A stretch of DNA of 64,000 nucleotides from Escherichia coli. GTDB lineage: Bacteria > Pseudomonadota > Gammaproteobacteria > Enterobacterales > Enterobacteriaceae. Positions 7,265-11,410 of the stretch are shown in pieces. The notes under the pieces are model-generated. The model did no database searches, was not told the DNA's origin, and was given only the letters and a program-made list of their open reading frames with translations. The position numbers were made by a program, and so were the translations under genes. Each line of letters opens with the position of its first letter. The first letter of the stretch is position 1. Location of the stretch: assembly GCF_024502345.1 (NCBI RefSeq), contig NZ_JALDNN010000001.1. The stretch is one strand, 5' to 3'.

Positions 7265-7666
7265 ATGGCGAAAGAATTTGGTCGCCCGCAGCGCGTAGCG
7301 CAGGAAATGCAAAAAGAGATCGCTCTCATCCTGCAGCGTGAAATTAAAGATCCTCGCCTGGGCATGATGACCACCGTTTCCGGTGTCGAAATGTCTCGCG
7401 ACCTGGCGTATGCCAAAGTATATGTGACGTTCCTCAACGACAAAGATGAAGACGCGGTTAAAGCGGGCATCAAAGCGTTGCAAGAAGCTTCTGGTTTCAT
7501 CCGCAGCCTGCTGGGGAAAGCGATGCGCCTGCGTATCGTGCCGGAACTGACCTTCTTCTACGACAACTCTCTGGTTGAAGGGATGCGCATGTCAAACCTG
7601 GTGACCAGCGTGGTCAAACATGACGAAGAACGTCGTGTTAACCCGGACGACAGCAAGGAGGACTAA
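7265..7666 (+). CDS. rbfA: ribosome-binding factor A
   Basis: ORF matches RbfA starting [18 protein letters not shown]; 133 aa. Confidence 0.9.
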
Positions 7667-8610
7667 TGAGTCGTCCTCGTCGTCGCGGTCGCGACATTAA
7701 CGGCGTTTTGTTGCTGGATAAACCGCAGGGTATGTCCAGCAATGATGCGCTGCAAAAAGTGAAACGGATTTATAACGCCAACCGTGCCGGGCATACCGGT
7801 GCGCTGGACCCGCTGGCAACTGGCATGTTGCCAATTTGCCTCGGGGAAGCGACGAAGTTTTCCCAGTATCTGCTGGACTCCGACAAACGCTATCGGGTCA
7901 TTGCGCGTCTTGGACAGCGTACCGATACTTCTGATGCCGACGGACAAATCGTTGAAGAACGTCCGGTAACCTTTAGCGCAGAGCAACTGGCGGCGGCGCT
8001 GGATACTTTCCGTGGCGATATCGAACAGATCCCTTCGATGTATTCAGCACTGAAATATCAGGGTAAAAAACTGTACGAATATGCGCGTCAGGGCATTGAA
8101 GTACCGCGTGAAGCGCGCCCGATTACCGTTTATGAATTGCTGTTTATTCGCCACGAAGGCAATGAGCTGGAGCTGGAAATTCACTGCTCAAAAGGCACTT
8201 ATATCCGCACCATCATTGATGACCTGGGTGAAAAACTCGGTTGTGGCGCGCATGTTATTTACCTGCGTCGTCTGGCGGTAAGTAAATATCCGGTTGAACG
8301 GATGGTGACCCTGGAACATCTGCGTGAACTGGTCGAACAAGCCGAACAGCAGGATATTCCGGCTGCGGAGTTACTTGATCCATTACTGATGCCAATGGAC
8401 AGTCCAGCTTCGGACTACCCGGTGGTGAATCTTCCGTTAACGTCTTCTGTTTACTTCAAAAATGGTAACCCAGTTCGTACATCCGGTGCGCCGCTGGAAG
8501 GACTGGTTCGCGTTACAGAAGGTGAGAACGGCAAATTTATCGGTATGGGCGAAATTGACGATGAAGGCCGCGTTGCGCCTCGTCGTCTGGTGGTTGAATA
8601 CCCGGCGTAA
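7666..8610 (+). CDS. truB: tRNA pseudouridine-55 synthase
   Basis: 314-aa ORF recognised as TruB; overlaps rbfA stop. Confidence 0.95.
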
Positions 8611-8662
8611 TGTTAACCGTCTTGCGATAACAGGTCGCTACGAGTAGAATACTGCCGCTTAA

Positions 8663-9028
<366 letters not shown>

Positions 9029-9043
9029 TTCTTGCGAGTTTCA

Positions 9044-9072
9044 GAAAAGGGGGCCTGAGTGGCCCCTTTTTT
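9044..9072 (+). terminator. rpsO rho-independent terminator
   Basis: gaaaagggggcctgagtggcccctttttt hairpin + T-run. Confidence 0.7.
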
Positions 9073-9075
9073 CAA

Positions 9076-9274
9076 GCTGACGGCAGCAATTCACTGGAAA
9101 CTAATGTATTGTTGCTATGAATGATCTTCCGTTGCAGAGGTTCGCGCGGCTAATGAGAGGCTTTACCCACATTGGGCTGGGTTAGGGTTGTCATTAGTCG
9201 CGAGGATGCGCAGAAGATCGGGTATTAACACCAGTGCCGTAAGGTACTGTCTAAGAAAGAGAAAGGATATTACA
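9076..9274 (+). promoter_or_regulatory. pnp leader region (site of RNase III-processed autoregulatory hairpin in E. coli)
   Basis: Position between rpsO terminator and pnp start; established knowledge for this locus, structure not folded here. Confidence 0.45.
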
Positions 9275-11410
9275 TTGCTTAATCCGATCGTTCGTAAATT
9301 CCAGTACGGCCAACACACCGTGACTCTGGAAACCGGCATGATGGCTCGTCAGGCTACTGCCGCTGTTATGGTTAGCATGGATGACACCGCGGTATTTGTT
9401 ACCGTTGTTGGCCAGAAAAAAGCCAAACCAGGTCAGGACTTCTTCCCACTGACCGTTAACTATCAGGAGCGTACCTACGCTGCTGGTCGTATCCCGGGTA
9501 GCTTCTTCCGTCGTGAAGGCCGCCCAAGCGAAGGCGAAACGCTGATCGCGCGTCTGATTGACCGCCCGATTCGCCCGCTGTTCCCGGAAGGTTTCGTCAA
9601 CGAAGTTCAGGTTATCGCCACCGTGGTTTCTGTTAACCCGCAGGTTAACCCGGATATCGTCGCGATGATTGGTGCTTCCGCAGCACTGTCTCTGTCTGGT
9701 ATTCCGTTCAATGGTCCGATTGGTGCTGCTCGCGTAGGTTACATCAATGACCAGTACGTACTGAACCCGACTCAGGACGAGCTGAAAGAGAGCAAACTGG
9801 ATCTGGTTGTTGCCGGTACTGAAGCCGCTGTTCTGATGGTTGAATCTGAAGCTGAACTGCTGAGCGAAGACCAGATGCTGGGCGCAGTAGTGTTCGGTCA
9901 TGAACAACAGCAGGTTGTTATTCAGAACATCAATGAACTGGTGAAAGAAGCCGGTAAACCACGTTGGGACTGGCAGCCGGAGCCGGTAAACGAAGCGCTG
10001 AACGCGCGCGTTGCTGCACTGGCTGAAGCTCGCCTGAGCGATGCTTACCGCATCACCGACAAACAAGAGCGTTATGCGCAGGTTGATGTCATCAAATCTG
10101 AAACCATCGCGACGCTGCTTGCTGAAGACGAAACCCTGGACGAAAACGAACTGGGTGAAATTCTGCACGCTATCGAGAAAAACGTTGTTCGTAGCCGCGT
10201 ACTGGCAGGCGAACCGCGTATCGACGGTCGTGAAAAAGATATGATCCGTGGTCTGGATGTGCGTACTGGCGTGCTGCCGCGTACTCACGGTTCTGCGCTG
10301 TTCACCCGTGGTGAAACGCAGGCGCTGGTTACTGCAACGCTGGGTACCGCTCGTGACGCACAGGTTCTTGATGAACTGATGGGCGAACGTACCGACACCT
10401 TCCTGTTCCACTACAACTTCCCTCCGTACTCCGTAGGCGAAACCGGCATGGTCGGTTCTCCGAAGCGTCGTGAAATTGGTCACGGTCGTCTGGCGAAGCG
10501 CGGCGTGCTGGCAGTCATGCCGGATATGGACAAATTCCCGTACACCGTACGTGTTGTGTCTGAAATCACTGAATCCAACGGTTCCTCTTCTATGGCTTCC
10601 GTGTGCGGCGCGTCTCTGGCGCTGATGGACGCAGGTGTGCCGATCAAAGCTGCCGTTGCGGGTATCGCAATGGGTCTGGTGAAAGAAGGCGACAACTACG
10701 TTGTACTGTCTGACATTTTGGGCGACGAAGATCACCTGGGCGATATGGACTTCAAAGTTGCGGGTTCCCGCGAGGGTATCTCTGCATTGCAGATGGATAT
10801 CAAAATTGAAGGTATCACCAAAGAGATCATGCAGGTTGCGCTGAACCAGGCTAAAGGTGCGCGTCTGCATATCCTGGGCGTAATGGAACAGGCGATCAAC
10901 GCGCCGCGTGGCGATATCTCTGAGTTCGCACCGCGTATCCATACCATCAAGATCAACCCGGACAAGATCAAAGATGTTATCGGTAAAGGCGGCTCTGTTA
11001 TCCGTGCCCTGACCGAAGAAACCGGCACCACCATCGAAATCGAAGATGACGGTACTGTGAAGATCGCAGCGACCGACGGCGAGAAAGCGAAACACGCTAT
11101 TCGTCGTATCGAAGAGATCACTGCAGAAATTGAAGTGGGCCGCGTCTACACTGGTAAAGTGACCCGTATCGTTGACTTCGGCGCATTTGTTGCCATCGGC
11201 GGCGGTAAAGAAGGTCTGGTACACATCTCTCAAATCGCTGACAAACGCGTTGAGAAAGTGACCGATTACCTGCAGATGGGTCAGGAAGTACCGGTGAAAG
11301 TTCTGGAAGTTGATCGCCAGGGCCGTATCCGTCTGAGCATTAAAGAAGCGACTGAGCAGTCTCAACCTGCTGCAGCACCGGAAGCTCCGGCTGCTGAACA
11401 GGGCGAGTAA
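9275..11410 (+). CDS. pnp: polynucleotide phosphorylase (PNPase)
   Basis: ORF recognised as PNPase with KH and S1 domains at C-terminus; start placed at in-frame TTG ([15 protein letters not shown]) giving 711 aa. Confidence 0.9.

Follow-up and report, generated by a model that had tools for sequence, protein, structure and literature searches.

The 246-bp rpsO-pnp spacer of an Escherichia coli genome as a control region working on both strands

The segment at positions 9029 to 9274 is, with a probability of roughly 95%, the Escherichia coli rpsO-pnp intergenic control region, working on both strands. Positions refer to the window, i.e., the whole stretch of 64,000 nucleotides that was analyzed, and there is no evidence that contradicts this identification. 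PNPase is a major RNA-degrading enzyme, and the short region sets its level by controls that act in layers: attenuation and processing by RNase III are joined by autoregulation, by CsrA, by an antisense RNA, and by the weakness of the start codon. The locus is well characterized and long published, and the current understanding of it is unchanged. Our analysis covered the identity to K-12, the gene positions, Rfam matches, RNA folds, covariation, the choice between the strands, and the conservation of the TTG codon and the Shine-Dalgarno (SD) sequence. The cleavages, the autoregulation, CsrA binding, and the expression and action of SraG were taken from the literature, with PMC5029454 serving as the source for the RNase III sites, autoregulation, CsrA, the mapping of SraG, and the UUG toeprint. 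The additions made here are modest. They comprise a strand test of the structure shared by SraG and the pnp leader, the finding that the UUG codon and the core of the hairpin are conserved across the order, a small hairpin at 9232-9249 whose structure is conserved, and the observation that the SraG promoter is only weakly conserved.

The gene order in the window was truB (7666-8610), rpsO (8759-9028), the 246-bp spacer (9029-9274), a long open reading frame (ORF) including pnp, and nlpI. rpsO encodes ribosomal protein S15 (89 amino acids, plus strand) and ends with a TAA stop codon at 9026-9028 in the ORF list; its coordinates agreed with the annotations of K-12 and of the PGAP-annotated strain Combat11I9. 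pnp, encoding polynucleotide phosphorylase, occupies 9275-11410 on the plus strand (711 amino acids with a TTG start), as judged from the ORF, the K-12 protein NP_417633.4, and PGAP. A sequence-only reading of this DNA had described a noncoding region of 246 bp between the rpsO terminator and pnp. The interval itself was confirmed, with rpsO ending at 9028 and the pnp TTG located at 9275, as in K-12 and in the PGAP-annotated strain; however, its left border had to be corrected. Since the count of 246 bp starts from the rpsO stop codon, the rpsO terminator lies inside the interval and not at its left edge. Likewise, the description as noncoding is right for protein but not for RNA, since a minus-strand small RNA gene spans 216 of the 246 bp.

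An ungapped comparison showed that the sequence from 8600 to approximately 11430 is colinear with E. coli K-12 MG1655, which annotates rpsO, sraG, and pnp at positions corresponding to those in the window. Within the spacer, 244 of 246 positions were identical. The two differences, at 9173 (T for A) and 9175 (G for A), both fall within the loop at the apex of the pnp leader hairpin and touch no predicted pair; the apical part of this hairpin, where they are found, is excised by RNase III. The stretch from 8600 to 9700 was present in 5,425 of 5,426 complete E. coli genomes, with at least 99% identity in 5,407 of them. The ungapped match to K-12 ended from 11435 on, just past the pnp stop codon, which implies that the pnp-nlpI spacer contains an indel with respect to K-12. 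Two Rfam matches were obtained between 8400 and 9800, namely, SraG (RF00082) and the ribosomal S15 leader (RF00114). The latter (8701-8815, plus strand, 117.6 bits) covers the rpsO 5′ UTR and the first codons and represents the S15 autoregulatory site. It was matched in every tested relative for which the sequence upstream of rpsO was covered, including a Pseudidiomarina outgroup.

The autoregulatory, RNase III-cleaved hairpin of pnp had been expected in this spacer, and folding of the leader located it. The region 9076-9290 folded with −75.1 kcal/mol (z = −4.0 compared to shuffled sequences, none of which was as stable) and contained a long hairpin of 97 nt at 9123-9219 on the plus strand, hereafter called hairpin R. 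On the coding strand, it follows rpsO and precedes both the pnp SD sequence (9263-9267) and pnp itself. Its stem is identical to the K-12 stem within a leader of K-12 sequence, and its pairs covary across Enterobacterales; the fold, a covariance model, and the covariation all support this hairpin, the presumed RNase III substrate of the pnp leader. RNase III cleaves the K-12 pnp leader twice, at +39 and at +77 relative to the P2 start (PMC5029454). From the 38-nt spacing of these sites, the 2-nt 3′ overhangs, and the predicted pairing, we infer that hairpin R is cut after 9155 and after 9193 and that P2 transcription starts at 9116-9117 on the plus strand. Independently determined transcript sizes fit this geometric placement. 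The rpsO transcript ending at T1 measures 420 nt and the RNase III-processed transcript 502 nt (PMC2834685), so that the first cut would be located 82 nt past the T1 end, at 9154-9155. The 3′ arm of hairpin R carries GGAUG at 9204-9208 (plus strand) as part of a GAGGATG stretch that is nearly invariant in 94 sequences. The processed pnp leader has two binding sites for CsrA (PMC5029454), and the GGA at 9204-9206 is a candidate for the upstream site, which would be exposed upon processing.

Upstream of hairpin R, a terminator scan and folds of both strands revealed a bidirectional Rho-independent terminator at 9044-9072. It consists of a G+C core (9050-9066) bordered by runs of A and of T on its two sides and constitutes both T1 of rpsO (plus strand) and the SraG terminator (minus strand). 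For the latter direction, the scan reported a terminator-like site from 9066 to 9050 that is followed by a T run, and SraG was reported to end at the rpsO terminator, which is active in both directions (PMC5029454). The RNase E site that initiates rpsO mRNA decay lies about 10 nt past the stop codon (PMC2834685), which would place it at approximately 9036-9040 on the plus strand. The pnp P2 promoter was reported downstream of T1 (PMC5029454). P2 and the SraG promoter both escaped a consensus promoter scan; therefore, the placement of both rests on the literature and on the identity to K-12. Conserved blocks were seen around 9102-9112; inspection by eye yielded no clear P2 hexamers in them. The fold also contained a hairpin (H1, 9082-9116, plus strand) between T1 and hairpin R that overlaps the P2 promoter region and would be present only in read-through rpsO-pnp transcripts. 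H1 was widespread in relatives, and the sense strand was the more stable one in 53 of 55 cases.

To follow the leader in other species, we used a degenerate DNA pattern for the PNPase N terminus, which retrieved 120 loci, one per species, nearly all of them from Enterobacterales and a few from Alteromonadales. The hairpin core comprised 27 columns that were invariant in 94 sequences spanning several Enterobacterales families, among them CGCGCGGCTAATGA in one arm and TCATTAGTCG.GAGGATG in the opposite arm. A plain MAFFT alignment analyzed with RNAalifold yielded only this invariant core, with 2 pairs covarying, since it had misaligned the stems at the base and the apex; it was replaced by an alignment to a covariance model derived from the structure of the E. 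coli hairpin. The search threshold was tightened after a lower one had mixed sense and antisense matches, and only sense matches were kept. The model then gave one sense-strand match, with 48 to 114 bits, in 88 of 100 sources and no match in the Idiomarina or Glaciecola outgroups. In the structural alignment of the 88 sequences, 93.6% of the cells held standard pairs, and 21 of the 37 pairs displayed compensatory changes on both sides. These pairing and covariation values were reached by none of 500 shuffles, and pairing fell to 34 to 53% in controls in which the partner was slid by 1 to 3 columns. In this alignment, covariation is thus found toward the base and the apex of the stem, with a frozen middle between them, and the hairpin core is far more conserved than base pairing alone needs.

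The length of the spacer varied among the relatives. In some of them, the rpsO-pnp spacer measured approximately 300 to 400 nt, compared to the 239 to 262 nt usual in Enterobacteriaceae, and a length of 535 nt was found in Candidatus Hartigia. The loci with long spacers include L013, L015, L018, L021, L023, L036, L063, L067, L093, and L102. In the Erwiniaceae examples that were examined, the extra sequence was located between rpsO and the terminator.

The minus strand of the spacer carries sraG. The Rfam model RF00082 matched 9045-9216 on this strand with 162.2 bits (gathering score, 50; model positions 1 to 177), and the K-12 gene b4449 (sraG, 3311183-3311398) maps to 9260 to 9045. SraG had been mentioned for the spacer without a position, and these two results place it on the minus strand at 9260 to 9045, antisense to nearly the whole pnp 5′ UTR; this orientation was the point missing from the sequence-only reading. 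By cRT-PCR mapping, the primary transcript has 216 nt and starts 42 nt upstream of the old annotation (PMC5029454). The older annotation of 174 nt began at 9218 in window coordinates. According to the literature, the 5′ 42 nt are needed for the action of SraG. A −10 box (TAATAT, 9272 to 9267 on the minus strand) ends 7 nt upstream of 9260 and is thus situated between the pnp SD sequence and the TTG codon; mutating the −10 box abolishes SraG (PMC5029454). The promoter sequence equals that of K-12, in which the start was mapped; expression of SraG is a prediction for the present strain. Among relatives, the TAATAT hexamer was kept in only 32 of 109, and RF00082 had no match in one Pseudidiomarina outgroup.

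The two RNAs overlap almost completely, and the structure included by Rfam in the SraG model mirrors the pnp leader hairpin. The conserved hairpin could accordingly be kept for the minus-strand SraG, the pnp leader being merely its mirror; RF00082 scored well in every Enterobacterales genome tested (74 to 161 bits in 11 of 11), and SraG alone is cut in vitro by RNase III at the mirror sites (PMC5029454). This explanation is nevertheless very unlikely given the folding properties of the two strands. Alignment-free folding gave a mean energy of −47.3 kcal/mol for the sense strand and −30.5 kcal/mol for the antisense strand, and in 95 of 96 distinct sequences the sense strand had the lower energy, the mean advantage being 17 kcal/mol. 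G-U pairs were counted 554 times in the alignment-free folds of the sense strand and 66 times in those of the antisense strand. The structural alignment contained 411 G-U cells, which pair on the pnp strand only, against 31 A-C cells, which pair on the SraG strand only; this count comes from an alignment fitted to the sense-strand model and hence favors the sense strand, but the alignment-free energies agree with it. The sense-built model, with its 48 to 114 bits on the sense strand, reached at most 42 bits on the opposite strand. In addition, the hairpin was kept in nearly all genomes, whereas the SraG −10 hexamer was kept in fewer than a third. The energies and the excess of G-U pairs show that the hairpin structure is maintained for the pnp mRNA, and it is on the pnp mRNA strand that the structure is under selection. 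That RF00082 matches all 11 Enterobacterales genomes while TAATAT occurs in 32 of 109 relatives suggests that the Rfam SraG family is in part the other strand of the leader. In many taxa, RF00082 may therefore respond to the terminator together with the mirrored pnp leader and not to an expressed small RNA.

A further hairpin, H3 (9232-9249, plus strand), was found in the fold between hairpin R and the SD sequence. It comprises 7 bp (CAGUGCC-GUAA-GGUACUG) and falls within the 5′ 42 nt of SraG. In 95 distinct relatives, its sequence varied while the hairpin was mostly kept (mean z = −2.9; z < −2 in 72 of 95). No description of H3 was found in the literature searched, which did not include the original mapping papers of the locus. 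The features of the leader can be joined into one reading that goes beyond the published picture and that we consider speculative and rather unlikely as a whole. The frozen core would be a sequence-specific protein-binding site, with PNPase, S1, CsrA, or RNase III box elements as candidate binders; H3 would be an undescribed element that tunes the accessibility of the SD sequence after processing; and "SraG" would often be an unexpressed mirror. Parts of this reading may already be published.

We place the start of pnp translation at TTG 9275, as the sequence-only reading had proposed. The protein read from this codon has 711 amino acids, equal to NP_417633.4, and the K-12 RefSeq annotation and PGAP both place the start there. 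The SD sequence AAGGA (9263-9267, plus strand) precedes the codon by 7 nt, and an AGG/GGA motif was present at this position in 109 of 109 relatives. A 30S toeprint was observed 15 nt from the pnp UUG, and a replacement of TTG by TGA was used to inhibit initiation of pnp translation (PMC5029454). Of 109 usable genomes, 105 had TTG at the homologous position, three Providencia genomes had GTG, and one Colwellia genome had ATG. The PNPase chains of 711 amino acids in the PDB begin at the TTG 9275 codon. In two older PDB entries for E. coli PNPase, 3CDI and 3CDJ, the chains begin six residues upstream (KRKDIT, encoded by the 5′ UTR at 9257-9274), an extension that presumably stems from a construct cloned from an upstream start, on the basis of an older and longer gene model, and not from the native end.

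The same reading had named an ATG at 9188 as the nearest upstream alternative, which does not hold. Position 9188 is a TTG, the start of the 740-codon ORF reported by the ORF finder, and the extension of 29 residues belongs to this codon; the only in-frame upstream ATG is found at 9206-9208 and would add 23 residues. Initiation at ATG 9206 (734 amino acids) or TTG 9188 (740 amino acids) would make part of the leader coding. The frame is indeed open from 9188 to 9275 in the window, and the KRKDIT residues of 3CDI and 3CDJ indicate that some workers cloned from upstream, but the remaining evidence renders such a start extremely improbable. No SD sequence precedes 9188 or 9206, both of which lie inside the RNase III hairpin, and the toeprint and the TGA replacement both concern the UUG codon. 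An in-frame stop codon was located at most 29 codons upstream of the pnp start in 96 of 109 genomes (median, 12 codons), and in 72 genomes there was no alternative start codon between this stop and the TTG. Given these upstream stops, the frame that stays open up to 9188 in E. coli is an accident of this lineage. ATG 9206 belongs to GAGGAUG, a nearly invariant motif in the hairpin R 3′ arm, and is kept whatever its frame, i.e., as an RNA motif and not as a start codon.

A minus-strand ORF of 58 codons with an ATG start (9163-9339) covers the start of pnp together with a part of the leader and is probably spurious. That the spacer hides a small protein gene such as this one is hardly credible, even with the ATG-initiated ORF and a longer transcript of the minus strand, whose start was predicted 339 nt upstream of the promoter of SraG (PMC5029454), because spacer lengths in relatives (mostly 239 to 262 nt, with a second group near 300 to 310 nt and some longer) differ by non-multiples of three, the stretch between hairpin and SD sequence lacks sequence conservation, the K-12 annotation is empty there, and the ORF starts outside the mapped SraG transcript.

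Taken together with the published work, the rpsO-pnp control region can be proposed to act as follows. Transcripts from the rpsO promoter would either stop at T1 (9044-9072) or read through into pnp, and P2 would add pnp-only transcripts that start at about 9116-9117. Both kinds of pnp transcripts are expected to carry hairpin R, whose two arms would be cut by RNase III, probably after 9155 and 9193, and the short upstream strand of the remaining duplex would then be removed by PNPase. The processed leader, of about 81 nt from near 9194, would open to RNase E and CsrA, with CsrA predicted to bind GGA motifs of the processed leader, one of which overlaps the SD sequence. As a net outcome, PNPase would lower its own synthesis, the autoregulation described in the literature (PMC5029454). 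Translation of pnp would begin at the weak codon UUG at 9275, 7 nt past AAGGA. On the other strand, SraG is predicted to be made from the minus-strand promoter, from 9260 to 9045, ending at the same terminator as rpsO. It may pair with the pnp leader up to 3 to 4 nt from the SD sequence, and this pairing would block binding of the 30S subunit and create extra RNase III sites. For annotation, pnp should be started at the TTG and not at the longer open frame, the spacer should be given sraG on the opposite strand, and Rfam SraG matches may in part reflect the mirror of the pnp leader hairpin.

Among known systems, SraG as represented by RF00082 and b4449 agrees with the window in the full-length match of 162 bits and the antisense position between the two genes, and the terminator and −10 box equal those of K-12. 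The Rfam model represents the older short form, which extends to 9216, whereas the primary transcript was mapped to a start at 9260, 42 nt farther upstream than in that annotation. Similar to SraG, RliD of Listeria and ref41 of Enterococcus are antisense to pnpA in Firmicutes and adjoin rpsO (cited in PMC5029454); RliD and SraG were reported to lack high sequence similarity (PMC5029454). Compared to the rpsO-pnp region of K-12, the genes, their order and spacing, the hairpin, the SD sequence, and the TTG start are all alike, and the two apical-loop substitutions at 9173 and 9175 in the hairpin set the present sequence apart.

The pnp leader also resembles other RNase III-controlled leaders, such as that of the rnc operon, in which a 5′ UTR hairpin is cut, the message is destabilized, and a ribonuclease is thereby placed under feedback control. 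Both leaders form a long 5′ UTR hairpin that is cut by RNase III and both are subject to feedback control. In contrast to the rnc operon leader, the feedback enzyme of pnp is PNPase, acting on the cut duplex, and not RNase III itself, and pnp has the added layers of an antisense RNA and CsrA.
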